From positions 90,997,353 through 91,061,352 of the forward strand of contig NC_057718.1 in NCBI RefSeq assembly GCF_004010195.1: a stretch of DNA of 64,000 nucleotides. The letters are read 5' to 3'. The translations under genes and the position numbers were made by a program. Source of the DNA: Chiloscyllium plagiosum. Taxonomy: Eukaryota. Shown here piece after piece: positions 2,620 through 62,286 of this stretch. The stretch's first letter is position 1, and every line of letters begins with the position of its first letter. The notes beneath the pieces were generated by a model. The model was given only the letters and a program-made list of their open reading frames with translations. It did not search any database and was not told the DNA's origin.

Positions 2620-3112
2620 GAACTGTTGTGAAGGATTATGGGAAATGGCAGGATAGTAGAGTTGAGATCAAGACCAGGTTATCCAGGATTTTATTGATGT
2701 GGGGTGGGGAGGGAGTGGGTGGGGGAGGAGGAGGAGAGAGGAGACTGGCTCGAGAGTTTGTACAATACACTCCAGCTCCTATTTCTTTCTATTCTCATGT
2801 TTTGTCTCACCTGATGAATCAGTCTCTCCTTGTGCCTCAATGTCTGCCTTTTATTGGTAATTACATGATGTTTGGATGTAGCAGACCTGGTCGAAAATAA
2901 GAGCTGTGCAGAGATGACAGAGGATGTCGTTTCAACTATACTAGTAATGGTGATGAGAAGGGTCTTGTGGTACAATGATAGTGTCCCTACTTTTTGACAG
3001 AAGATCAGGGTTCAAGTCCTACCTGTCCTGTCAGTGTGTCATAACCTATTAAAGGCTCCGTATTAGCGAACCAATCTCTGGGCTGAAAGGTCCAGGTTCA
3101 AGTTTAACCTCG

Positions 3113-3411
3113 ACCATAAAACATAGAAGCTGAAATTAGGCCATTCAGCCTAGCAAGTCTACTGCACCATTCAATCATGGCTGATACGTTTCTCAAACCT
3201 ATTCTCCCACTTTCTCCCTCTAACCCTTGATACTTAAGAACCTATCCATCTCAGTCTTAAATATCCTCAATGACCTGGCCTCCACAGCCTTCTGTGACAA
3301 TGAATTCCATAGATTCACCACTCTCTGGCTGAAGACATTTCTCCTTACCTCCCTTCTAAAAGGTCTTCCCTTTACTCTAAGGGTGTGCCCTCAGGTTTTA
3401 GTCTCTCCTAC
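3113..3411 (-). mobile_element. CR1 3' end (second subfamily)
   Basis: ggccattcagcc..attcaatcatggctgat..ctggcctccacagccttctg matches the 27540-27800 type. Confidence 0.8.
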
Positions 3412-9666: not shown

Positions 9667-12600
9667 TGTGACATGAATGGAAAGATGGAGCTCAGTTAAA
9701 GTCATTAAAAAGGAAGTAACCATGATAGCAACATCAACTCAAATAATCAAGAAACACAACAGCCTTTTAAACCTCTGAGACATCAAAGATGAAGTTGAAA
9801 GGCAACAGAGAACCACACCCAGTCTCTCTTCATTCAATTACAGAATAATGGAGTGTTGTCGTCATCTTTGCAGAGGTCCTTGGAAAAGGTCGACACATCT
9901 GTCTTGCATAATAGTTACTGTATCTGCTCATTTTGTGTAAAAGATGGTTGGTTTTAATTGAAAGACATTAATTGTAGAGAATTACAGTCTTTGGACCACC
10001 ATGTCTGCACCAGTCATCAAACACCCAATCATTCTAATCATATTTTCCTGCACTTGACCTATAACCTTTTATGCTGTGACATTTCAAGTGTTCATCTCGC
10101 TAGTTCTTAAATATCTTGAGGGTTCCCACCTCTGCCCTTCTTTCAGACAGTAAATTCCAGATACTCACCACTCTCTGGGTGAAAGAAGTTCTTCCTTAAA
10201 TTGCCTCTAAAATGCCTGCCCCTTTACCTTAAATCTACTTATCAATCCCTCTACTAAGGGGAAACCTCTCTTTCTATTTGTCCTATTAAAGCTCCTCATA
10301 ACTTTGGATACCTTGATTGGATTATTCACATTTTTAACTACCTCTCTAGGTAATCAGCTTCTGTACATTTTATGCACTACTGTATTTGAAGTCCAGATCA
10401 ATTATCTGCAGTTGGTTATTAACTTCTCCTTTCAATCTGAGTTGAGGACAGTACGTAATGGACTGAGTTTTAGGCAAATGCAGTTTCCCTTCTATAAAAC
10501 AGTGAAGGTGACTTTGTTGTAAGGAGTGCGCTGGGTCTTTATTGGAAGCTTTTAAAAGTGATCTAAGAAAAGACTTCTCATGTTTTGTAGGCAGAAGTGA
10601 GTACTACAGATTAGAATCAAGATTAGAGTGGAAAAGCATAGCAGGACAGGCAGCATCCGAGGAGCAAGAAAATCGACATTTCGGACAAAAGCCCTTCATC
10701 AGGAATCATATTTTGTCCCAAGCCATTAACTAACTCCTGAACAGGCCGAATGAAGAGGCTGTGTGGCTCCTCTCGCGACCACTCCAGTTTTTGTGAAAGA
10801 CTGTCCAAAGCCCTGGAAAAATTGTACAGCGGAAGCTGAGAGAAAGTGTGGAAAAGATTCACAGTTGCCAGTATTAAAAGGAACCAACAATTGGCAAAGC
10901 TTCAGCAGGCTGGGATCTTTTCTGTTGAAAAGGAGCAAGACAAACCTGAAAGAGGAAAGTAAAATTCTACAATGGATTTGTTAGGGTGGGTGTGAAGGAC
11001 CTGACTTCAGTTGTATTTCGAGTGAGTTTATTAGTTGCTAAACATGAGAGAAAGTAATGATGCAACATATCCACACAGGTTAGAAATGAGGTGTGATTCC
11101 AAAAAAATGGGGTAAAAACCGAGTCAGTCTCTGGGTTATTCTTGAAGAGTAGATAAAAGAACGTTGCTGGTTAAACAGTTGGTGTTGAGATCCTTGGCTT
11201 TGCAGTTACTTGAAATGCTTTTGTCCTATTTTCATTTGATTGGCTAGCTGCCTTCTAGGACTCAGAGCAAGATAGTTCTTTGACTGCAATGCAGGGGTAA
11301 CCAGTTTGTCCTCTGTAACTTTCACAAAACTAGACTTGCTATGCATGAGTACTTCAACCTAATGCCACACATGAGCCCCTTAGCTCACTAGCGTGCCTTC
11401 TTCCACTAGGGAACGTAGACAAAATTGAACTAGCTTTTAATCCATGTTCTAGTGTACTCGCGAAAGAGGAGGACATAAAATGTCTCTCACTCAGACTGCT
11501 GTCTTTTTTTCTCTCATCATGTCCCCAGTCTGAGATAACACCCAGAAATTACTGTTTACTTTTTAGTACTTTTCTCCCTTTAAGCCCATGCCTTTGAAGA
11601 TTTCTTAGCACCTCATCAGGTGTGACATTCCAGGATGTGACTGTCCTGATAGTCACTGAATTTACATCCACAGTCACCTTGGCCATGCGTCCTTTCAAAA
11701 AACATGTTGGCATTAAAATATTCAATATGTCCAAAGGTGATCTGGGGTTATGATTCATGATGATGAGAATTGATATGATAGACATTGTTGAAGGACCTGA
11801 ATATTAGGCCTTACTCTTTCAAAGCCCCAGGCTGTTCTGCCCAGTACCCCACATGACATCATTGTAGGAGCTGCTGAAGGCACTCCTCAATATTAACCCT
11901 TTCAGACCTTGTACAACAGAAGACACTAGAAAAGGGAACAGGCAAGGCCATGGTGGGATTTGCAAATACAGATGAGAATTTTAAGGCGTTGCTTAGCTGA
12001 GAGTGAATGTAGGTCTAGGAGCACAGGATTCTGTGTAACTGGGACTTGGTGTGAGTTGTGAGCAGAATTTTGAAAGATCACTAGTTTATATAGGGTATGG
12101 AACATTCCTGGAGTGCACGGTAATAGTCAAACTCCTAGGTAACAATGGCATGAATAAGGGTTTCGGTAGCAGATGAGCTAAGATGGGCAATGTTTCTGAG
12201 GTTGAAGTAGGCTTCTGTGAATATTTACGTGGAGGAATTTCCTTACCCTGAATACGGGAAGGAATACTCAGTGCTCAAAAGATTGACTTGAGATTCCCTT
12301 GCACACAAATGCCCAGATGTTCAAAAACCAGCTTAAGGCCAGCCTATATGTTATCTCCCAGCGTAGTAAAAGTGAAGGGAAGGAATGTTCAAAGTTGATG
12401 TACTACACTTTTAAGTTTTGGGCTTTGTTTGTTACCCTTTTTATGATAATTCTGTACTATCTGAAAAGTTACTACAGCATTCATGATCTTACTACTCACT
12501 TATCTCAGACAGCTGTAATTAATAGACAAATTAGTTAAAGCAAAAAGCACCAAGATCTCGAAGGAGAGAGATCCAGAACTGTCTGCTTCTCCTTGCACAC

Positions 12601-26139: not shown

Positions 26140-27803
26140 TACCTTAGCAGGGATGACCGTGAAGGAACAATGGCAGATATTTCTGTGTATAATGCAGAAG
26201 TTGCAGGATCAGTTCATTCCTAAAAGGAAGAAAGATCCCAGGAGGAGGCATGGGCAGCCGTGGCTGACGAGGGAAGTTAAGAAACATATAAAGTTAAAAG
26301 AGAAAAAGTATAACATAGCAAAGATAAGTGGGAAAACTGAGGACTGGGAAGCTTTTAAAGAGCAACAGAGGATTACTAAGAAGGAAATACGCAGAGGAAA
26401 AATGAGGTACAAAGGTAAANNNNNNNNNNNNNNNNNNNNNNNNNNNNNNNNNNNNNNNNNNNNNNNNNNNNNNNNNNNNNNNNNNNNNNNNNNNNNNNNN
26501 NNNNNNNNNNNNNNNNNNNNNNNNNNNNNNNNNNNNNNNNNNNNNNNNNNNNNNNNNNNNNNNNNNNNNNNNNNNNNNNNNNNNNNNNNNNNNNNNNNNN
26601 NNNNNNNNNNNNNNNNNNNNNNNNNNNNNNNNNNNNNNNNNNNNNNNNNNNNNNNNNNNNNNNNNNNNNNNNNNNNNNNNNNNNNNNNNNNNNNNNNNNN
26701 NNNNNNNNNNNNNNNNNNNNNNNNNNNNNNNNNNNNNNNNNNNNNNNNNNNNNNNNNNNNNNNNNNNNNNNNNNNNNNNNNNNNNNNNNNNNNNNNNNNN
26801 NNNNNNNNNNNNNNNNNNNNNNNNNNNNNNNNNNNNNNNNNNNNNNNTATTAGTAATAGCATTAGCAAATTTGCTGATGATACTAAGCTGGGTGGCAGGG
26901 TGAAATGTGATGAGGATGTTAGGAGGTTACAGGGTGACCTGGTCAAGTTAGGTGAGTGGGCAGATGCATGGCAGATGCAATTTAATGTGGATAAGTGTAT
27001 GGTTATCCACTTTGGTGGCAAGAACAGGAAGGCAGATTACCACCTAAGTGGAATCAATTTAGGTAAAGGGGCAGTACAGAGAGATCTGGGGGTTCTTGTA
27101 CACCACTCAATGAAGGTAAGCATGCAGGTACAGCAGGTAGTGAAGAAGGCTAATAGCTTGCTGGCCTTCATAACAAGAGGAATTGAGTATAGAAGCAAAG
27201 AGGTGCTTCTGCAGTTGTACAGGGCCCTGGTGAGACCACACCTGGAGTATTGTGTGCTGTTCTGGTCTCCAAATTTGAGGAAAGACATTCTGGCTATTGA
27301 GGGAGTGCATGCGTAGGTTCACGAGGTCAATTCCTGGAATGGCGGGGCTACCTTACGCTGAAAGACTGGAGCGACTGGGCTTGTATACCCTTGAGTTTAG
27401 ACGCTGAGAGGGGATCTGATTGAGACGTATAAGATTATGAAAGGATTGGACATTCTGGCAGTAGGAAGCATATTTCCACTGATGGGTGAGTGCTGAACCA
27501 GAGGACACAGCTTAAAAATAAGGGGTAGGCCATTTAGGACAGAGATGAGGAGAAGCTTCTTCACCCAGAGAGTGGTGGCTGTGTGGAATGCTCTGCCTCA
27601 GAGGGCAGTGGAGGCCCAGTGTCTGGATTCATTTAAGAAAGAGTTGGATAGAGCTCTCAAAGATAGTGGAATCAAGGGTTATGGAGATAAGGCAGGAACA
27701 GGATACTGATTAGGAATGATCAGCCATGATCATGTTGAATGGCGGTGCAGACTCGAAGGGCTGAATGGCCTACTCCTGCACCTATTGTCTAGTGTCTATT
27801 GTC
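26140..27803 (+). mobile_element. CR1 LINE spanning an assembly gap (N 26420-26847)
   Basis: PWLTREVK linker before the gap; SKFADDTK..LVRPHLEYC after it; (ctattgt)n tail. Confidence 0.95.
26420..26847. other. Assembly gap (N run)
   Basis: Run of N. Confidence 1.
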
Positions 27804-29344: not shown

Positions 29345-29582
29345 GCAAAAATCAAAAGAACTGCGGGTGCAGTAAATCAGAAACAGAACAGAAATTGCTG
29401 GAAAAGCTCAGCAGATCTGGCAGCATCACTGGAGAGAAATCAGAGTCAACGTTTCAAGTCGAGTGACCCTTCCTGTTAACTCTGATTTCTCTTCACAGAT
29501 GCTGCCAGCTCTCCTGAGCTTTTCCAGGAATTTCTGTTTTTGGTTCTGATTTACAGCATCTGCAGTTCTTTCGGGTTTTTAT
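29345..29582. mobile_element. Inverted pair of Penelope-like terminal repeats (older family)
   Basis: aaagaactgc..gaaattgctggaaaagctcag..gaaatcagagt mirrored on the other side; related pieces at 30022-30260, 40650-40760 and 62340-62470. Confidence 0.65.
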
Positions 29583-29619: not shown

Positions 29620-29943
29620 GGGGGAAGTGGTGGTGTAGTGGTAATATCACTGGATTAGTAACCCAGTAGCTCACACTAATGTCCCGGGGACATGGCAGAT
29701 GGTAAAAATTGAATCCAATAAAAAAATTTCCCTTTAAAACTCTAATGATAACCGCCAAACCATTATCAATTGTTGTAAAACCCAACTTGTTCCTGAATGT
29801 CTTGTTTCGAGGATAATCTGAGCTACATGCGAGTTTCAACCCAAAGCAATGCGGTTTGATTCTTAATTGCCCTCTGAACGATTAGGGATTGGTAATAAAT
29901 GGTGGCATAGTCAGCAACACTCACATCCCATGAATAATTAAAC
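29620..29943 (+). mobile_element. tRNA-headed SINE sharing 5' body and 3' tail with the 53838 LINE
   Basis: Head ggggaagtggtggtgtagtggtaatatcactgga; body ...cttaattgccctctgaa; tail ...ataaatggtggc..cacatcccatgaat. Confidence 0.75.
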
Positions 29944-31863
29944 AACGGCGTACTGTGGAAGTCAAAGGATAATTCAAGGTGCTTTCAGTGTTGGTAAGGC
30001 AAAAGTTAAAATTGTGAAACAGGCAAAAACAGAAATTGCTGGAGAAACTCAGCAGGTCTAGCAGCATCTTGGTAGATAAAACAGAGTTAGCATGTCGAGT
30101 TCACTGACCCTTCCCCTGGTTTTTGTTTGTTTCAGATCTCCAGCATCCGCAGTTTAGTTTTATTTTAGCGTTCAATTCAGTGCTACATCTCTACCAGATA
30201 TGCCATTCTGAGGAAGGCTCATTGGACTCGCAATGTTCACACTGTTTTCTTTCCACAGGTAATGCACAGTATCCTTAGCTCTCTGTTTTATAGTTAAAAT
30301 TGGGGTTTGTAATTGGTTTAGCTGTCTGAAATAGAATGTGTTTAATTTACAATGCCGACGTTTAAAATCCTTCAGCAAAGAAAAAAATTAATGTATCCTT
30401 AAATTTGCTTAAGTGAAAGGTCAATTGTTCATTCTGAAGGTATTTACTTAGACATAATTATTCTTTGCTGATCCAGATTGGTTGGACACACCTTGTTTCT
30501 TTATCCTTCCTGGTTAGATTAGAAGCATTTTGTTTGATCCATTGTTATAAACTTTGTCAGAGTCCTGCATAACGACGGCCATTTCTTTGCAGAGATCAAG
30601 CCAAAGAAAATGCAAGTTTTTTAGGGTGGAACCAGGCAAGTGAGCAACATGATTAAGCTTCATAAGAACCAGTAAGATTGGTCTGCTGAAGACTGGCATT
30701 TTGATGTGAATTAAGGCTTTTAATTGCAATCCAAAACTGTTTAGATTGGAATGTACAGAGTGTGTCATGCCTTTTTTAAAAGTGTGCCGATTTAGTCCAG
30801 CCCTTTGATGGGTATTTGTTCTGGGTGTCTTAATGGGCACAAGCCCAGTTTTTCAATGTCCTGGCCAGCCATTTGGTTCCATTTCCTGTTGACATGCAGT
30901 GAAATGTTGAAATTAGGAAAACCATCGCCCATTTGTATCCGGATGTTCCTGTGGGAAACTCAAATTCTTGTCATGTGTTTCTCTGAAAATCGCCGAGCAT
31001 AAAGTTGGTGAGATTCTTACACCAGCTAGATTGGCAATAACTTGATCTGAGCACAAGCATTTTGAACTTCAATAAACCAATATTGGAAACATGCCCAGCT
31101 ATGACCCGTTTCCATGTTTTGAATAGTCCAATGGGTCATTCAGAAAGTAACCTGCTGTAAATATGCAAGCTACATTGAATCCTACAAGGACTTGTCTGTT
31201 TAATTTCACTTATATAATTTATTTTAGGATTTTGAATTTCTGAGGTGTATTGCAGCCACACAGTTTTCAATATGAGTCACTTTTTCTGATGCATTTGGAT
31301 GTCTTATGGCTGTTGCTTAAATCCCTCCTCTCCTGAAGGGCTCTGATCATCCTGATTCCAAGTGGGATTTGAAGAGGGAACACAGAGGAGCTATGCCATG
31401 GGTCTCAGTAGACTTTTCAACCAAAAGGAAGTATCGCCACTAATTCTGATCTAGGGTCTGCATGTGACATGTACAGAGAAATACCATATCCAGCATGAGC
31501 TGTGTTTGAGATTGCAAATCCGAGACCGGATTAGAACTGCCGCGGGCAGAAGGTGAAAGCTGGGTTTCCACAGGTTTCAAGCTGGGTCCATGATCCACAT
31601 CCTGAACAAGCCCTGGCTGGATCCACAGTGGATCCCCGAGCTTTTGGAGAAGGTAGCTGTCCCCCTACCCCGTGTCCCCCCAGAAGGGCCATGTATACCA
31701 GACAGAACCGCAGCCTGAACCTGCCCACAGGGAGGCAGTTTTCAAGATGCTATCAGTTCTAGTGCACACACCGATTACGTAGACCTAGGAATCTTGGATG
31801 TAAAAAGCAGCTTTGAAGCAAATTTATTGATACAGTGAAAAGAATCTTCCACTCCCAAGAATT

Positions 31864-32212
31864 GGAGATGGTGGTCGTACTGGTAATGCCACTGGACCAG
31901 TAATTCAGAACCCCTGGCTAGCAATCTGTAACATGGGTTCAAATCCCACTGTGGCAGGTGGTGAAATTTTACTTCAATAAAAATCTGGAATAAAGTGCTA
32001 GCCTAATGACGATCATGTAGCCACTGTTGATCTTTGTAAAAACCCAACTGCTTCACTGATGTCCTTTAGGGAATGAAATCCACAATCCTTACCTGGTCTA
32101 CACATGATGCTGGAATCGTAACAATGTGGTTAATTCATTGTTGATATCTGAACAGTTATGGATGGAAAATAAATGGTGACCTAAACAATGATCCCACATC
32201 TCCATGAACAAA
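31864..32212 (+). mobile_element. Same SINE family as 29620
   Basis: B box ggttcaaatcc; body aatctggaa..cactgatgtcctttagggaa..ccttacctggtct; tail ..cccacatctccatgaa. Confidence 0.75.
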
Positions 32213-40219: not shown

Positions 40220-41040
40220 AGAGTCAGAGTTTTTGCAACACAGAAGGAAGCCCTTTGGCCCATCATGTCTGTACTAGTCATCAAACATCCATCTATTCTA
40301 ATCCCCATTTTCCTGAATGTGGCCCAGACCCTGGTGTGCTGTGACATTTCAAGTGTTACTGTATACAGTATAGTTCTTCAATGTGTTGAGGTTTTTAAGC
40401 CTCCCCTGCCGTTTTTGTAGGTAGAGAGTTCCAGATACCCATAACCATCTGGAAAAACAATCCTTTCTCAAAATTCCTCTGAACCCCTGCTCCTTGCCTT
40501 GAAACTGTATACCTGGTTGTTGAGCCCTCTATTAGAGGGATAGATTTTCCCTTTCTATCCTGTCGATGCCCTTCAGAACTTTGTTACACTTACAACAGCT
40601 TCCCCTGTCATACTACTCTGCTCTAAGGGCAACGACCTCAGCCTATCCCATTCTGAAGAAATCATACTGGACTCGCACCAGTAGCTCTGTTTCTCTCTCT
40701 CTCTCTCTCTCTCTCCAAAGTTGTTGTCAGAACGACTGAGTTTCTCCAGCATTCTCTATATTTGAGCCAGCCTATTTAGTCTCTTTTCATAGTTGAATCA
40801 CTCCAGGCAAGTCAACACCCTGGTGAATCTCCTCTGCACCCTCCCTTGTCCAGTCACTACCTTTCCTATAGTCTAACCACAGAACTGCAGACAGTACTCC
40901 AGGTGTGGGCTAACTAACACTATATGCAGCTCCATCACAACCTCCTTACTGTTGTATTCAGTGCCTTGCCTAATCAAGCGAAGTATCCCAATCGCCTCCT
41001 TAACCATCTCAGCTACCTGTCCTGCAGCCATCAAGGATCT
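40220..41040 (-). mobile_element. Decayed CR1 3' part with a nested Penelope-like/CT piece
   Basis: cagaactgcagacagtactccaggtgtgg is PHLEYCLQF on minus. Confidence 0.75.
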
Positions 41041-43846: not shown

Positions 43847-44562
43847 GGAAATAACTTCACAGAGGTGTGAATCCCATCACGAAGTCACTCTTTATTTACA
43901 TGTGCCCAGTACATTGGCTCTGACAAATTAGCTCAGAGTTGGTCACTTGAGTGAGGAGACTCTCTAAATGTCCTGTTTATATCTTTCAGCCAGGGCTCCC
44001 TGATTGGCCCAGGTTAACAGCCCCAGTCAAGGATCTCATAGTCAATAAGATCCATCTGGCCCTTGTTCCAATGGCTACATCTCAAACCTTGTCCTCTTCC
44101 TCCCACTAACCTCCCCCCCCACCCCCCAATATCCCTGGATGTAGGCCTGCTCTTTCTCTGCTAGCCTATCCTGTGACATTTTCACCCCAGGCCTGGTTCT
44201 TCCAGCTCTGCCACAGTCACGGGCAGCATGTACTGGACCATACCATCTGCCCAGAGCATCCAGGGAGATTTCCCTCCTCTTGTTTAGGTGGTGTCGGTGT
44301 TGAGGCAGCATCCATCCCACTCATGTCGCCTCTGAAATAATTACACAGCGGCCAGTATCCTGTCACTAAGTCACCCTTTATTTACATGTGCCTAGTACAC
44401 GTGCTCTGACCAGCCAGTTTCGAGTCCTTCCCGAGAATGAGGAGATTGTCTTGAATCTCCTGTTTATGTCTGTCAGCCAGGGTTCCCTGATTGGGTTAAC
44501 CTGGGCCAATCAAAGATCTCCTAGTCAATGAGATCCACCTGGCCCTCATTCTAGTCACTACA
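43847..44562 (-). mobile_element. Miniature LTR element (TRIM-like): LTR - ~250 bp internal - LTR
   Basis: Direct repeats 43847-44079 and 44333-44562 (TG..CA-type ends, AATAAA on minus); PBS-like gaggcgac after the 5' LTR and a purine-rich tract before the 3' LTR. Confidence 0.7.
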
Positions 44563-45409: not shown

Positions 45410-45785
45410 AAAAATTTTCATTTATTTAACACTTCCATGACCTCAGAGGATATCCCAAGGCACTTTAGAGACAATGCAGAGGATTTGAAGTTTAGTTGCT
45501 AGTGCAATGTTGTAGTAGACATGTGACGATGAGCAGATAGAGTTTGAAGGATAAATATAAGCCAGAACACTGGGATATCTCCACTGCTCCTCTTTGAAAT
45601 ATTGCCATTTAATCTTTACGTCTGCCTTAGAGGGCAGACTGGGTTCCTGGTTAATGTTTCATTTGAAAAGTGGCACCTCTCACATTTCTGCACTCCCTTC
45701 ATTCCACACCAAAGTATCAGCCTAGATTTTGTGCTCAGGTCCTGAAGTGAGACTTGAAGCCACAACCTGCCAACTGAGCAAGGAC
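45410..45785 (-). mobile_element. Deu-domain SINE (SacSINE1/AmnSINE-like), old
   Basis: Minus strand reads gaggtgccactttt..gtctgccctct..gacgtaaagat..atggcaatatttcaaagaggagcag..atatttatcc, resembling the Deu domain, followed by an L2-like tail. Confidence 0.7.
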
Positions 45786-45929
45786 TGACACTAGCAATGA
45801 GAATATTCTGGAGAAAACTTAGCTTCTCAACTTTGATAGAAGGTGACGTGAGGCGAACTTGCTGAAGTATATCTAAAAATAGTATGGAGTAAGGAGTCCT
45901 TACAAAATACAATAAATCCTGTGTTAAAG

Positions 45930-46700
45930 CTTTATCAGGTTGACCCTGATATTCAGGTGTGCCTGATGCTGCTCCTGGCATGCCCTTCTGCACTCTCCAT
46001 TGGATTGACACTCATCCCCTGGATTGACAGTAATGGTGCATTCGGGGATATGGTAGACCATGAAGGTACTGTTTGCGTTGAAGTCCACTTCTGCTGTCGA
46101 TGCTCCCTCAGTGTCTCATGGATACCCAGTCTTGAGTTGCTAGATCTTTTCTGAGTCTATCCCATTTCGCAAAGTGATAATGCCACACAGCATCTTGGGG
46201 TGTATCCTCAAAGAGAAGATGGGAATTCCATCTCCACTGTGTGGTCACTCCTACTGATACTGTCCTGGATAGATACTTCTGAGAGAGGTACATTGGTAAG
46301 GTGATGGGTAAGGTCAATGTTTTTCCCTCTTGATTCCCTCATCCATCACCTGCCCCGTATTCAGTCTAGCAGCTGGTCCTCACCCAAAGTGCATTCTGCC
46401 CCCTTGTCGCCTCAGTGCTACCTCCAAGTGGTGTTCAGCCTGGAGGAGTACAGGTTTGTTGTCTAAGATTTTTATTAGGGGTTGCGGAGCGATGTAGTGT
46501 ATGGGAATTACTCGCAGGTTTACTTGTTTGAGCTGATGCCATGAGACTTTATGGAGTGTGGAGTCCACATTGAGGATGCTTTCTGACGTGATACTACCGT
46601 ACTGTTGGCACCTGTGCCGGATCTGTCCAGGTTGCTTAATCCAGTTGCCTGGGTGACCGTTGTGGGTCAGATTGGTGTTAACAAGATAGCATTCTGTCCC
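45930..46700 (-). mobile_element. Older fragment of the same LINE family as 53838-57045 (EN/linker region)
   Basis: Minus-strand WHYHFAKWDRLRKDLATQDWVSMR matches the 54935-55000 region. Confidence 0.7.
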
Positions 46701-48225: not shown

Positions 48226-48662
48226 TGACTGGAAAAAGCGCTGATGGCAGACAGACCCTTGGACTTGCTCGGTCTCCTGCACTACCTCCACCCAGGGGGA
48301 GCTGCAGCCATGAGTGACTGCTGCTGCCGACTATGCTGGGAAGGGGGATTCACCATTTATTACATTCATTTGAAAGCTTTTTTTTTTTGGAGGTTGCATT
48401 TAGAGTCATAGAGATGTACAGCACGAAACAGACCCTTCAATCCATGACTGGAAAAAGAGCTGATGGCAGACAGACTCTTGGACTTGCTCGGTCTCCTGCA
48501 CTACCTCCACCCAGGGGGAGCTGCAGCCATGAGTGACTGCTGCTGCCGACTATGCCGGGAAGAGGGATTCACCATTTATTACATTCAATTGAAAGCTTTT
48601 TTTTTTGGAGGTTGTATTTAGAGTCATAGAGATGTACAGCACGAAACAGACCCTTCAATCCA
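48226..48662 (+). repeat. Near-identical tandem duplication, unit ~219 bp
   Basis: tgactggaaaaag..cccttcaatcca occurs at 48226-48444 and 48445-48662. Confidence 0.95.
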
Positions 48663-48908: not shown

Positions 48909-49118
48909 ACAAAATGGGTTGCTGGAAAAGCGCAGCAGGTCAGGCAGCATCCAGGGAACAGGAGAATCGACGTTTCGGGCATAAGCCCTTCTTCAGGAAT
49001 TCGGGCTTATGCCTGAAACGTCGATTCTCCTGTTCCCTGGATGCTGCCTGACCTGCTGCGCTTTTCCAGCAACACATTTTCAGCTCTGATCTCCAGCATC
49101 TGCAGACCTCACTTTCTC
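48909..49118. mobile_element. Young inverted pair of Penelope-like terminal repeats
   Basis: Near-perfect ~75 bp inverted arms; TSD ctgcaaac at 48901-48908 and 49119-49126. Confidence 0.85.
48965..49000 (-). ncRNA. Minimal type I hammerhead ribozyme motif
   Basis: AUUC-CUGAAGA-A-GGGC UUAU GCCC-GAAA-CGUC-GAUU; activity untested. Confidence 0.7.
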
Positions 49119-51064: not shown

Positions 51065-51456
51065 CTGTTTTTGCTGGGGATTATTTGATCGTGGGATGTG
51101 GGTGTTGCTGGCTGGATTGGCATTTATTGCTAATTCCTAATTGGCCCTTGCTCTGATTGGCTTGTTAGGGCCATTTCAGAGAGCTGTTCAGAGTCAACTA
51201 CATTACTGAGAGTCTGGAGTCAAATGTAGACCAGAAGGGAAAGGATGCCAGATTTCCTTCTCCAAAGGACATTAGTGAAGCAGATGGGTTTTTGTAACAA
51301 TTGACAATCATTACATGTTTGCCATTAAACCAGCTTTTTAATTTCAATTTTTTTAAAAATTCCAATCTCACCATCTGCCATAGTGTCCCCATAGAATTAA
51401 CCTGGGATTCTGGATTACTAGTCCAGTAACGTACCCACTATGCCTCTGGCTCCCAC
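51065..51456 (-). mobile_element. Same SINE family as 29620 (minus strand)
   Basis: Reverse complement of head, body (gatttccttc..aaaggacattagtgaa) and tail (tgggatgtgggtgttgctggc). Confidence 0.75.
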
Positions 51457-53484: not shown

Positions 53485-53837
53485 TAGACATGGTCTTGAT
53501 AGGATTAATTAATGACCACATAGTGAAGACGCCCTGGGAAGCAGTGATCATCATTTGCTTGATCTCATATACAGTTTGAGTGTGAAAAGAATGGGTTTGA
53601 AACCAATATCATTAACCTAGATAAGGGTAAATATTTTGGTATGAAAGCAAAACCAGCAAAAGTAAACTGATAATTTAGAGTAAGGAACAAGGCAATAGGG
53701 ACACGGTGGTAGAGATTTAAGAGATATTTCAGACTGCATGGAATAAATGCATTTCAATGAGAGAGAACATTTCCAAGAGAACTATTGTAGTTAACAAAAA
53801 TAGTATTAAGAGAAACAATTTAATTATGTAAAGATGT

Positions 53838-56800
53838 GGGGAGGCAGTGGCCTGGTGGTATTATCACTCGACTATTAATCCAGAAACCCAGAATAATGTT
53901 CTGGGGACCGGGGTTCGAATCCTGTTATGGCAGATGGTGGAATTTGAATTCAATTTAAAAAATCTGGAATTGAGAGTCGATTGATGACCATGAAACCATT
54001 GTCAATTGTCAGAAAAACCGATCTAATTCACTAATGTCCTTATAGGAAGGAAATCTGCAATCCTTACCTGGTCTGACCTATGTGTATGTCCAGACCCACA
54101 GTAATATGGTTGCCTCTCAGCTGCCCTCTGAAATGGGCCTAGCAGACCACTCAGTTGTATCAATCGCTAGAAAGTCGCAACAAAGAAATGAATCCGTACG
54201 GACCACCTGACATCGAACTTGGATCAAGAAAAGACAATGGCAAAAACACAAAATTGCTCTGTTGACCAGGCAAAATCCTCCTTACCAACATCTGGGGGCT
54301 AGTGCAGAAATTGAGAGAGCTGTCTCACAGACTAGTCAAACAATAGCCTGACATAGTCATTCTTACAGAATCGTACCTGACAGATAACACCCCAGACATC
54401 ACCACTATCATCCCACTGATAGGACAGATCCAGCAGAGGTGGCAGCACAGTGGTATATGGTCGGGAAGGAGTTGCCCTGGGAGTCCTTGACATTGATTCC
54501 AGACCCCAGGAAGTCTCATGGCTTCAGGTTAAACATGGGTAAGGAAACCTCTTACTGGTTATCACATACTGTCCTCCTTCAGCTGATGAATCAGTACTCC
54601 TCCATGATGAATCAGTACTCCACCTTGGAGGAAGCACTGAGGGTGAAAAATGTACTCTGGGTGGGGTATTTCAATGTTCACCTCCAAGAGTGACTCAGCA
54701 ACAGCATTACTGATTGAGCTGGACGGGTCCTAAAGGAGATAACGGCTTGACTGGGTCTGCAGAAAGTGATGAAGGAACCAACAAGAGGAAAAAAACATAC
54801 TTTAACTCATCCTTCCGAATCTGCCGGCTGCAGAAGCGTCTGTCCACGACCGTATCGGTAAATGTGACCACCGCACTGTCTTTGTGGAGACTAAGTTCTG
54901 CCTTCACATTGGGAATAACCTCCATCTTGTTCAGTGGCACTATCACCGTGCTAAATGAACTAATCCAGCAGCTCAAGACTGGGCATCCATGAGGCGCTGT
55001 CAGCCATCAGTGGCAACAAAACTGTACTTCTGCACAATCTGCAACCTCATGGCCCAGCATATCCCCCATGCAACCATTACCACCCAGTCAAGGAATCAAC
55101 CCAGGTTCAATGGAGAATGCAGGAGGGCATGCCAGGAGCAGCATCAAGCATACCTAAAAATGAGGTGCCAATCTGGTGAAGTTACCAAACAGGACTACTT
55201 GCGTACCAAATGGCATAAACAGCAAGTGATAGACAGATCTAAGCAATCCCACAACTAACGGATCGGATCTAAGCTCTGCGGTCGTGAATGTTGGCAGACA
55301 ATTAAACAACTCACTGGAGGAGGAGGCTCCGCAAGTATCCCCATCCTCGATAATGGAGGAGCCCAGGACATCAGTGTAAAAGATAAGGCTGATGCATTCG
55401 CAACAATCTTCAGTCAGAAGTGTCGTGTAGATGATCTGTCTCGGGCTCTTCCAGTGGTATTACAGATACCAGTCTCCATTCAATTCAATTCACTCCAAGT
55501 GATATCAAGAAACGGCTGGAGGCACTGGATACTGCAAAGGTAATGAGCCTTGATAACATTCCAGCAATATTACTGAAACCTTGTGCTCCAGAACTTATTG
55601 CTCCCCTCGCCAAGCTCTTCCAGTACAGTTACAACATTGGCATCTATCCAGCAATGTGGAAAATTGCCCAGGTATGTCCTGTACACACAAAGCAGGACAA
55701 ATCCAACCTAGCCACTAAGCACCCAATCAGTCAACTCCCGACCATCAGTAAAGTGATGGAAGGTGTCATCAACAGTGTTATCGAGCAGCACCTGCTCAGT
55801 GACACCCAGTTTGGATTTTGCCAGGGTCACTCAGCTCCTGACCTCATTACAGCCTTGGTTCAAACATTGACAAAACAGCTGAATTCCATGTGAGGGGAGA
55901 GTGACAGCCCTTGACATCAAGGCCACATTTGACTGAGTGTGGCATCAAGGAGCCCTGGCAAAACTGGATTCAATGGGTATCAGGGGGAAACACTCCACTG
56001 GTTAGAGTCATACCTGGCACAAAGGAAGATGGTTGTGGAGGGTCAGTCTTCTCAGCTCCAGGACATCTCTGCAGGAGTCCCTCAGAGTAGTGTCCTAGGC
56101 CCAACAATCTTCAGCTGTTTCATTAATGACCTTCCCTCTGTCATAAAGTCAGAAGTGGGGACGTTTGCCAATGATTGCACAATGTTCAGCATCACTCGCG
56201 ACTCCTCAGATACTGAAGCAGTCCGTGCTCAAATGCAACAAAATCTGGACAATATCTAGACGTGGGCTGACAAGTGGCAAGTAACATTTGCACCACACAA
56301 ATGCCAGACAATGACCATCACCAATGAGAGGCACTGTAACCACCACCCCTAGACATTCAATGGTGTTACCATCACTGAATCCCCCACTATCAACATCCTT
56401 GGTGTTGCCATTGACCAGAAACTCAACTGGACTCACCACAAAAATACAGCAGCTACAATAGCAGGTCAGAGACTAGGGATACTGCACCGAGTAACTCACT
56501 TCCTTATACCCCAAAGCCTGTCCGCCATCTACAAGGCACAAGTCAGGAATGTGGTGGAAAACTCCCCACTTGCCTGGATGGGTGCAGCTCCAACAGCACT
56601 CAAGAAGCTTGACAACATCCAGGACAAAGCAGCCCACTTGATTGGCACCACATCCATAAACATTCAGTCCTTTCACCCCTGGTACTCAGTGGCAGCAGTG
56701 TATACATCTACAAGATGCACTGCAGAAATTCACCAAAGATCCTTAGACAGCACTTTCCAAACCCACGACCACTTCCACCTCGAAGGACAAGAGCAGCAGG

Positions 56801-57045
56801 TACTTGGGAACACCACGACCTGCAAGTTCCCCTCCAAGCCACTCACCATCCTGATGTTGGAAGTATTCCGCCGTTCCTTCACAGTCGTTGGGTCAAAATC
56901 CTGGAATTCCCTCCCTACCAGCATTGTGGGTCAACCCACAGCAAGTGGGCTGCAGCGATTCCAGAAGGCAGCTCACCACCACCTTCTCAAGGGGCAATTA
57001 TAAATGGCCAGCCAGTAATGCCCAAGTCTCACAAATGAATAGAAA
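53838..57045 (+). mobile_element. Near full-length, decayed single-ORF non-LTR retrotransposon (APE endonuclease + RT, CR1/L2 group) with a tRNA-derived 5' head
   Basis: A box TGGCCTGGTGG at 53848 and B box GGTTCGAATCC at 53912. EN motifs from ~54278 (TNIWGL..PDIVILTESYL; VGYFNVH). RT motifs QFGFCQGHS, ALDIKATFD, SAGVPQSSVLGP..FINDL, FANDC. Several stops and frameshifts. Confidence 0.85.
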
Positions 57046-58373
57046 ATGTCATTAAAATTGAACAGTATTTGAAAATCAGCAAAGAATGACTTATAAAAAG
57101 GAGAAAAATTAGAGTACAAGTGAAAGTTATAAAGACAGACAAGAAAAGTTCCTACTCATACTTAGAGAATTAACAAAGTAAGCATTGATCACGTAGAAAA
57201 TGTGTCTGGGCAATTCGTAATGGAGGTAGCAGATGAATAAACTCATATTTTGCATCATTCTTAACTACAGTGGATACAAATTACATCTCAGAAAGAGAAA
57301 GTAAGGTGGAACTCAAGAAAATTACAATCACCAGGGAAACGGTACTTGGGAATTTATTAGGCCTCCAGGTCTTTCACATTCAAACCTAGTCTTGATAGTT
57401 ATGGGTTTAATTTCTTTTTGTTATTTTTGTTTAAAGAACAGCAGCTAGGAGTATAAGTTCTAATTGATTTTTTTCCTGTCTTTAGTTCAGGGACACACGA
57501 ACTCAATTATGGATCTTCGTCACCATCCTGTATAGACACCAGTTAATTGACAGCAATGGGAATTTGTTGCTCCTTCATTGTATATGGCAGGCTGCATGCT
57601 AACTTAACTCGGAATAGTTCTCAATTCTCCTGCTGATCAAGATGTTCAGTATGTTTTCCTTATGTGCTGCATACAGACCTGCATCAGGAACCTGTGATCT
57701 GGTAGATTAGAAAATCTAATTGCATTTTAAAAGTAATGTGCAAGAAACAGCAGTCAGCAGATTCCTTGTCCCTCAAAACTGTGGTACCTGGTTATTTCTA
57801 ATTTTCAGTCCTTTGGCTGCTTATGAACAGAATACTCACCAGGAATTCATTTAAATAAAATTGAATATTCAACCTTGATCCAAAACGTTGACTTGCTGGC
57901 AATCCTGTGGGTCAAGATTTAATACACTAATCTCTTCCCTCATTTTCCCATAGTCTAAAAATATGCTGAACATTTATGAGTAGATTATTAATAATTATGA
58001 TATTTAAAAATTATTCACCCTTAACTCCCACCATGTCCTAGAGTTTAGCCTTGGTTTCACTGGATCCAAAATTGCATTGTGTTAAATCAAGTATAGGTTT
58101 CACTACTACCAAGTACAATGTATGAGGGTTATTTTGAACATAAATATTTATGAAATTCACTGGGGATATTGGCTTTTATGCCAATCTGTAAGGTTATGGA
58201 GAAACAACTCTTCTTCTGTTTCAGGCTGTCTCATCCTCCACCATGTACAATCAGGTTGTGTGGCTGCATCCTCTGAAGGTGGTCTGCTGATGGAAGATAT
58301 TTATAAAATGATGGTGAAGATAAAGTGCTCTACTTGCCTAAAGGTTACTCATTATTTGCATCTTGTTGAGCAG

Positions 58374-58652: not shown

Positions 58653-59441
58653 TTGAAGATGACAAATGCTGGAGATCACAGAGGGTAAGATCCATGGAGA
58701 GGGAACAGGCCAGCTTTTCCAGTATAGGTGACTCTTCATCAGAGCTAAAGTAAAGTTTAAGGAGTGGGGAACAGCATTTATGCTATAGTTGGGGGGGGGG
58801 GAAGGCGCTGGGTGTTGGGTGCCGGTGGAGAAAAGATGTTGATAGTGCGGCTTAAGTGATCGGATGGTGAGAATGGCAGAATATTGAGGTGTCTCCTGCC
58901 AGTTCTGAAAGGACAGTCAGTTGAATGGGGAGGAGGGGAGAAAGGAAATGATAACAAGCTGAAAGAAAGGGCAACATGTTCACAGTTTAAAGGTGTTGAA
59001 CTCCATATTATATCCACAAGGCTGTAAAGTGCCTAGTCCGAAGATGGGATGTTGTTCCTCCAGTTTGTGCTGAGATTATGAACACTTCTTCCCTTACTTT
59101 CAGCTTGTTATTATGTCCTCCCCTCCCCCCATCCCACTTACTATCCTTTGAAGTCCGGCAGGAGACACACCATTGTTCAGCCATTCTCACATTCTGATCA
59201 CTTAAACTGAACTATCAATATCCTTTCTCCACCAGCACCCTACACCCACTGCGCCCAACACCCCCACACCATAGTATAAATGCTGTCCCCTCCACACTTT
59301 ACTTCAGCTCTGATGAAACGTCATCTAGGCTCGAAATGTTAGCTTCCTCACTCTCCATAGATGCTGTCTGACCCACTATGACCTCCTCCAGCATTTGTTG
59401 TCTTCAGTACAGATTCCAATATCTGCAGTAATTTGTTCCTA
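58653..59441 (+). mobile_element. Penelope-like insertion with inverted 5' copy of its terminal repeat
   Basis: ~230 bp diverged inverted arms (58655-58885 versus 59170-59408); TSD ctacacctga at 58643-58652 and 59442-59451; hammerhead-like cores in both arms. Confidence 0.8.
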
Positions 59442-61787: not shown

Positions 61788-61918
61788 CGGAGGAAACCCA
61801 CGCAGACACGGGGAGAATGTGCAAACTCCACACAGAGAGTCACCTGGGGTCGGAATTGAACCTGGGTCTCTGGCGCTGTGAGGCAGCAGTACTAACCGCT
61901 GTGCCACCGTGCCACCCA
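61788..61918 (-). mobile_element. HE1-type SINE 5' part, abutting an NN gap
   Basis: Reverse complement of the head of the 61979 copy. Confidence 0.85.
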
Positions 61919-61978
61919 CGGTAAACAGGTAAAGCAGGGTGTGCAACCTGTTTATATTAATCATTCAGTGAAAGACAT

Positions 61979-62286
61979 GGGCGGCACGGTGGCACAGTGG
62001 TTAGCACTGCTGCCTCACAGCGCCAGAGACCCAGGTTCAATTCCCACCTTAGGTGACTCTCTGTGTGGAGTTTGCACATTCTCCCCGTGTCTGCGTGGCT
62101 TTCCTCCAGGTGCTCCGGTTTCCTCCCACAGTCCAAAAATGTGCAGGTTAGGTGAATTGGCCATGGCCCGTAGTGTTAGGTGAAGGGATAAATGTAGGGG
62201 AATGGGTCTGGGTGTGTTGCCCTTCGGCAGGTCGGTGTGGACTTGGGCCGAAGGGTCTGTTTCCACACTGTAAGTAATCTAATCTA
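61979..62286 (+). mobile_element. HE1-type SINE
   Basis: gggcggcacggtggcacagtggttagcactgctgcctcacagcgcc head; taatctaatcta tail. Confidence 0.9.

Follow-up and report, generated by a model that had tools for sequence, protein, structure and literature searches.

The window analyzed here, a 64,000-nt stretch of Chiloscyllium plagiosum DNA, contains a full-length, decayed copy of what appears to be an elasmobranch Zenon LINE, about 3.2 kb long, in which an A box, a B box, a body, a linker, an APE endonuclease, a reverse transcriptase (RT), and a short tail follow one another (Table 1). Head, body, and linker together span 53838-54271. The coding part is interrupted by many stops and frameshifts, its C-terminal region stops near 57003, and a deletion near 56993 and a short duplication at 54591-54624 within the endonuclease region are private to this copy. 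Intact relatives are 948 to 1,003 amino acids long, and full-length relatives align over 54438-56991; the endonuclease fragments taken alone gave no Pfam match, and a protein homolog of the endonuclease N-terminus was found for 0 of 11 candidates. Like Zenon elements, the copy has a single APE-RT frame with no room for an ORF1. Its decayed 3′ end carries a short A-rich stretch (57034-57045) and no microsatellite. The initial annotation had reported an A box at 53848 and a perfect B box at 53912, a body running into an APE frame at about 54278, then RT and a short tail, about 3.2 kb in all without an ORF1; we recovered every part of this layout.

Table 1. Features of the Zenon element and its relatives in the window.
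Feature	Position	Strand	Basis
Full-length decayed elasmobranch Zenon LINE copy	53838..57045	+	First 400 nt resemble published consensuses (by eye); depth steps at borders
tRNA-like head	53838..53925	+	A box 53848-53858 and B box 53912-53922, 64 nt apart; no ARAGORN or Rfam call
5′ body common to local SINEs, not a Deu domain	53926..54154	+	Sequence comparison; published Deu rows differ
LINE-only linker with AUG at 54188	54155..54271	+	Multicopy in public runs X1, X12, X17, X21
APE endonuclease region with stops and frameshifts	54272..54890	+	Motifs; tblastn with PF14529-bearing relatives
RT domain	55702..56406	+	PF00078, E 3.5e-16, in stop-read-through frame
Reading-frame end, short 3′ UTR, and A-rich end, common to SINEs	56987..57045	+	Tail comparison; loose ends in mapped contigs
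Possible 4-nt target-site duplication	53834..53837, again 57046-57049	+	Too short for significance alone
Another internal fragment from this LINE family, older	45917..46565	-	72% to 54963-55194; tblastn
SINE, short form: 5′ part to ~54131 plus tail	29620..29945	+	Sequence comparison
SINE, short form	31864..32212	+	Sequence comparison
SINE, long form: 5′ part to ~54154 plus tail	51076..51455	-	Sequence comparison

Against the consensus motifs of the two boxes, the A box has one mismatch and the B box none, and a pair this good arose in 7 of 5,000 shuffles of the element. Among 29 other LINE loci, only 2 had an A and B pair upstream, both with mismatches and judged to be chance. Neither ARAGORN nor Rfam called a tRNA in the head, and ARAGORN at relaxed thresholds returned noise everywhere; as neither the head (z -0.36) nor the body (z -0.08) folds better than shuffled sequence, we make no claim of a structure or an IRES. 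The head is thus putatively tRNA-derived, as read from the boxes and their spacing, and we take the 64-nt spacing and the arm between the boxes to be reminiscent of tRNA-Ser. No match to head or body (best E 0.3), and no copy of the shark family, occurred in 80 metagenome loci. We also considered whether head and body represent SacSINE1/Deu with an L2 partner and rejected this, since the published Deu rows in the PMC7245038 supplement are, by eye, unlike the body at 53926-54154, in which no Deu domain was recognized.

Other repeats share the window. A separate SINE at ~45550-45800 (minus strand) has a body resembling the published Deu rows by eye and is probably SacSINE1-like; repeats at 9989-10224, 40253-40495, and 43848-44088 appear related to it on BLAST pairs and visual comparison alone. 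Long self-complementary elements at 58654-59406, 61789-62107, 48911-49080, and 29347-29579 are possibly MITEs or head-to-head repeat pairs, and 48226-48662 is a tandem duplication of 219 nt with 97% identity.

A 4-nt repeat marks both borders of the element and extends to 7 nt with one mismatch. What is left of a very old LINE coding sequence, oriented as the element is, lies on either side (53522-53837 and 57046-57371); its matches to LINE proteins are weak (E 0.005 to 0.04) and their spacing fits one interrupted frame, which suggests that a single older LINE frame was interrupted by the Zenon insertion. The one-frame spacing and the 4-nt repeat agree with the earlier proposal of an old CR1 host reading contiguously across the block, though the weakness of the flank matches tempers it. 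A separate target-site duplication around the SINE-like part alone, which would have set that part apart from the LINE, was looked for and not found.

Membership in the elasmobranch Zenon family

Sequence comparison identifies the family as one that has been catalogued before, the elasmobranch Zenon LINE of the CR1 group described in PMC13343379. That survey reports Zenon, a clade of the CR1 group, from coelacanth, hagfish, and five species of elasmobranchs; every Zenon that it covers is without ORF1 and terminates in poly-A. With a motif taken from the window we retrieved seven rows of its Supplementary Table 2, which are all seven of its elasmobranch Zenon consensuses (CarCar_, HypSab_, RhiTyp_, and ScyCan_Zenon-1 and SquAca_Zenon-1/2/3; 2,886 to 3,314 characters). 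Over their first 400 nt, compared by eye, all seven consensuses, from five species, open with the same head, body, and linker as the window copy, RhiTyp_Zenon-1 being the closest; the A box is intact in all seven and the B box in six, and both are kept in Squalus while the sequence between them diverges. Head and body are present in none of the three hagfish and coelacanth consensuses over the same length. The elasmobranch Zenons are likewise 2.9 to 3.3 kb long with a single APE-RT frame and no ORF1, the window copy differing in its decay, and near-full-length copies number from hundreds to thousands in each genome (Table S3, PMC13343379), with a few intact frames reported. These consensuses were built outwards from an RT seed under manual inspection, so that the head was approached from the coding part of the element. 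The word "tRNA" has 0 occurrences in the main text and readable supplement of PMC13343379, which there remark on neither the head nor Pol III.

Read depth and protein relatives point to the same family. We mapped four public runs to the window at 80% likeness, at which depths are not copy numbers: depth steps from ~26 to 39 outside to thousands inside at both borders of the element and runs from thousands to hundreds of thousands over it. The linker bin reached 3,836, 4,992, and 123 in three organisms against 8 to 39 in the adjacent 5′ flank bins, a difference at 54193 is common to 73 and 60 contigs, and that position is covered by 12 raw reads with as many starts; the same insertion is apparently present in organism B. 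The named close protein matches all come from sharks and rays (Heptranchias, Mobula, Rhincodon, Cetorhinus), and viral contigs and prokaryote genomes yielded no relative. Three shark gene models (P0002, anoctamin-7-like; P0004, aldo-keto reductase; P0190, 3′-5′ exoribonuclease) contain pieces of Zenon LINE protein, likely as annotation artefacts or exonised copies. The initial annotation had proposed that head and LINE body form one unit and that full-length copies without the head would speak for a chance pairing. The unit is real at the family level, given the seven consensuses and the linker that is multicopy in three organisms; over the first 400 nt, the head is missing from the three hagfish and coelacanth consensuses and from none of the seven elasmobranch ones.

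The placement of the RT in a clade, also called for at the outset, came from a tree of 50 rows (31 proteins including that of the window, 18 of the 80 metagenome loci, and one CR1 from the window) that contains no labelled Zenon RT. There the element and whale shark P0009 fall together in a clade of 26 rows (98/96) that excludes the window CR1. This clade includes metagenome locus L001, which has a single frame, a poly-A end, and a T-rich leader without A or B boxes. A leader motif at L001:385-430 recurs by eye in the coelacanth LatCha_Zenon-1 (PMC13343379); it may be the ordinary Zenon promoter, or a ribozyme, replaced in the shark lineage. Other Zenons (lepidopteran, hagfish, coelacanth CR1-5_LCh, L001) likewise lack ORF1 and have an A-rich end, and they are tied to the same RT clade indirectly, through the grouping of L001 with our element and its motif shared with LatCha_Zenon-1; they differ in having T-rich leaders and, in the parts compared, no A/B-box head. 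Because L001 lies within the clade and lacks the head, we infer that Zenon lost ORF1 long ago and that the lineage of sharks and rays acquired the head afterwards. The absence of ORF1 is therefore ordinary for Zenon and no part of the novelty, and, as it predates the head, Pol III use does not account for it.

Local SINEs and the direction of origin

Three SINEs in the window match 53838-54154 at 67 to 71% identity. Their 5′ parts end at ~54131 in two and at ~54154 in one, each joined directly to a tail like the last 60 nt of the element, and they contain nothing foreign to the long element except small indels. Compared with 56987-57045, the tail scores were reached by 0 of 500, 2%, and 8% of shuffles. 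The initial description of these SINEs as the same head and 5′ body joined to a similar tail is thus borne out for the 5′ part; for the tail it is clear in one SINE and weak in two. Both boxes are kept in the SINE at 31864, and the B box is deleted in the other two. These SINEs consist of LINE 5′ and 3′ ends only, as SIDEs of the Persaeus type do, but carry the head, whereas such SIDEs have no Pol III promoter. The long element in turn has internal A and B boxes at its 5′ end, as in SINE2, but encodes EN-RT over 3.2 kb, so that only the three short copies are short and non-coding as SINE2 elements are.

We consider it a little better than an even chance that the LINE is the source of these three SINEs. 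The SINEs comprise only its two ends, with two different breakpoints, which favors the LINE as parent, and lepidopteran Zenon repeatedly gives deletion products of its 5′ and 3′ ends (PMC6740152). One of these, the SIDE Persaeus, combines the Zenon 5′ end with the frame end and 3′ UTR much like our SINEs; it differs in having no tRNA homology and no Pol III promoter (PMC6740152). Acquisition by the LINE of a 5′ module from a SINE accounts for the relation equally well. Template switching is the accepted route for adding SINE heads and counts for capture, as does the lack of both head and body in other Zenons and the existence elsewhere of tRNA-headed SINEs with Zenon tails (PMC11481361, PMC6685494). 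A 5-nt block present in two local SINEs and the Squalus consensus is missing from the window LINE copy; the third SINE lacks it too, as do the Carcharodon and Scyliorhinus consensuses (PMC13343379). This pattern, in three decayed copies only, hints that the 5′ ends of SINE and LINE may have evolved together.

The window element may resemble the salmonid SlmI SINE and RSg-1 LINE. Bipartite LINE-derived SINEs (RTE, Vingi; PMC5786205) and Zenon-tailed SINEs (PMC11481361, PMC6685494) also combine a tRNA head with a LINE-derived body and/or tail, the head sitting on the SINE only, whereas here the coding LINE has it. SacSINE1/DeuSINEs (SacSINE1: PMC5499810) and HE1 are further tRNA-headed shark SINEs with LINE-derived tails; their partners are L2/CR1-type and HER1 LINEs, and the published Deu rows are by eye unlike the body of the element. 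The open-access literature, as searched, describes neither a Zenon with a tRNA head nor an autonomous LINE driven by Pol III, and gave no name for the local SINE, for which Repbase, Dfam, or SINEBase may have one. The element thus represents a known family with an unusual promoter module, apparently unremarked.

T-run depletion and a proposed Pol III model

Pol III terminates at four Ts (PMC2666806), and a check for such internal terminators had been proposed for this element. Its sense strand has one T4 run in 3,207 nt, against 6.2 in base shuffles (P 0.006) and 3.9 in dinucleotide shuffles (P 0.063). TTT occurs 14 times against 36 expected (observed/expected 0.39); with protein and codon usage fixed, the counts are 12 against 23.1 for TTT (P 0.0015) and 1 against 4.2 for T4 (P 0.046), and AAA is at expectation. 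The strand is accordingly T4-poor, with the depletion of T4 itself borderline under the stricter shuffles and its statistics drawn from one copy. The TTT ratio lies below those of the coding regions of all 29 other LINEs (minimum 0.61, median 1.07; 3 to 34 T4 runs each), which are those of the 80 metagenome loci with at least 2.3 kb matched, and six other LINE pieces in the window have 23 T4 runs in 5,278 nt. Of the 15 control loci in the tree, only L001 falls in the clade of the element, and it is T-rich, with 25 T4 runs in its coding region. By eye, the leaders of the seven elasmobranch consensuses contain no T4 in 400 nt, while all three from hagfish and coelacanth do (PMC13343379). The lone T4, at 55816, is absent from the same site in a Heptranchias copy, as judged from an out-of-frame translation, and looks copy-specific. 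Two observations run the other way: the second fragment of the family shows no depletion (TTT observed/expected 1.00, 750 nt), and an unrelated LINE fragment at 26849-27784 also lacks sense T4 in 936 nt. The T-run shortage is, indirectly, the pattern that selection for Pol III read-through would be expected to leave.

In our reading of the sequence it is therefore likely that Pol III transcribes the full coding RNA, and we think it more probable than not that the window holds a decayed shark/ray Zenon LINE whose head, present in the whole family, makes Pol III transcribe the whole ~3.3-kb RNA. Counting against Pol III, the family tail holds AATAAA, which is compatible with Pol II as well. Oligo-dT single-cell raw reads are found on the element (2,186, of which 14 at ≥99%) and are sense-biased; priming on the A-rich tail explains that bias, and the reads show no start site. 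Translation is the weak point, for Pol III RNAs have no m7G cap and are as a rule untranslated, even if in the L1 system Pol III-made RNAs retrotranspose with ORF2 alone (PMC2666806); some LINEs function from ribozyme-cleaved 5′ ends (PMC5786205). The AUG at 54188 is kept, by eye, in six of seven elasmobranch consensuses (PMC13343379), but in the window copy about 7 extra bases are needed to bring it into the endonuclease frame. In HypSab_Zenon-1, the only consensus readable from this AUG to the endonuclease, the AUG is by eye shifted by one base relative to the endonuclease, whose own frame contains no AUG as far upstream as the preceding stop; frameshifting, initiation at a non-AUG codon, or an error in the consensus could possibly explain the mismatch. 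The fuller claim of an autonomous coding retrotransposon, with a Pol III-made 3.3-kb messenger translated without a cap, kept since the shark-ray split, and repeatedly spawning SINEs by internal deletion, we advance tentatively, at slightly less than an even chance.

Three other readings were weighed against this one. A one-off chimera, or a chance juxtaposition of a SINE and a 5′-truncated LINE at this locus, has practically no probability left: the same junction in seven of seven genome-wide consensuses (PMC13343379) refutes it, the linker is multicopy, and the element has neither an internal duplication nor a SINE tail remnant in its linker (all three tails within shuffle range, lowest P 0.048). 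Nothing now speaks for it beyond the lack of a non-self contig bridging head and endonuclease among the 24 listed of 385,374 pieces, and contigs are short. An unlikely reading, though one with more behind it, makes the head a captured SINE module serving as 5′ leader, with an internal Pol II promoter in the body and the T-poor coding strand a compositional quirk. LINEs are normally Pol II-driven (PMC5786205), base composition varies widely between LINE clades (PMC7140322), and the AATAAA and the borderline T4 statistics fit; yet the A and B boxes stay intact in Squalus while the sequence between them diverges, and TTT depletion persists with composition and codon usage fixed and AAA at expectation.

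We also doubt a division of labor in which Pol III makes the full-length template RNA, and capped read-through transcripts that Pol II makes from copies within host transcription units supply the protein, which acts in trans on any tailed RNA. This would explain the intact boxes and the T-run depletion without cap-independent translation, and the high depth over the SINE-shared part shows efficient trans mobilization; long-term conservation of the EN-RT frame across sharks and rays would nonetheless be easier if protein and template were the same RNA.

Under Pol III transcription of the whole element, the head would have been gained once, before the shark-ray split, replacing the ordinary Zenon leader. 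Because the promoter lies within the transcript, every full-length copy would keep it. Selection against Pol III terminators would strip T runs from the coding strand, and Pol III would read on until it met a T run in the flanking DNA, just as with SINEs. Recognition of the short 3′ tail by the EN-RT protein would then lead to insertion of the RNA through target-primed reverse transcription, which is established for LINEs, and internal deletion would yield ready-made Pol III SINEs, as the three local copies look.

In the textbook split, LINEs are Pol II-made and coding and SINEs are Pol III-made and non-coding. SINEs cannot encode protein, and Pol II and Pol III signals may conflict (PMC5786205). 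The family is abundant, and a few intact frames are reported (PMC13343379), which puts a cell-culture assay within reach. The existence of a successful LINE family in which the tRNA-type head is fixed and the coding strand is poor in terminators challenges the LINE/SINE split, and in one small element it makes testable both the natural translation of a long Pol III transcript and the one-step birth of a SINE from its partner LINE.
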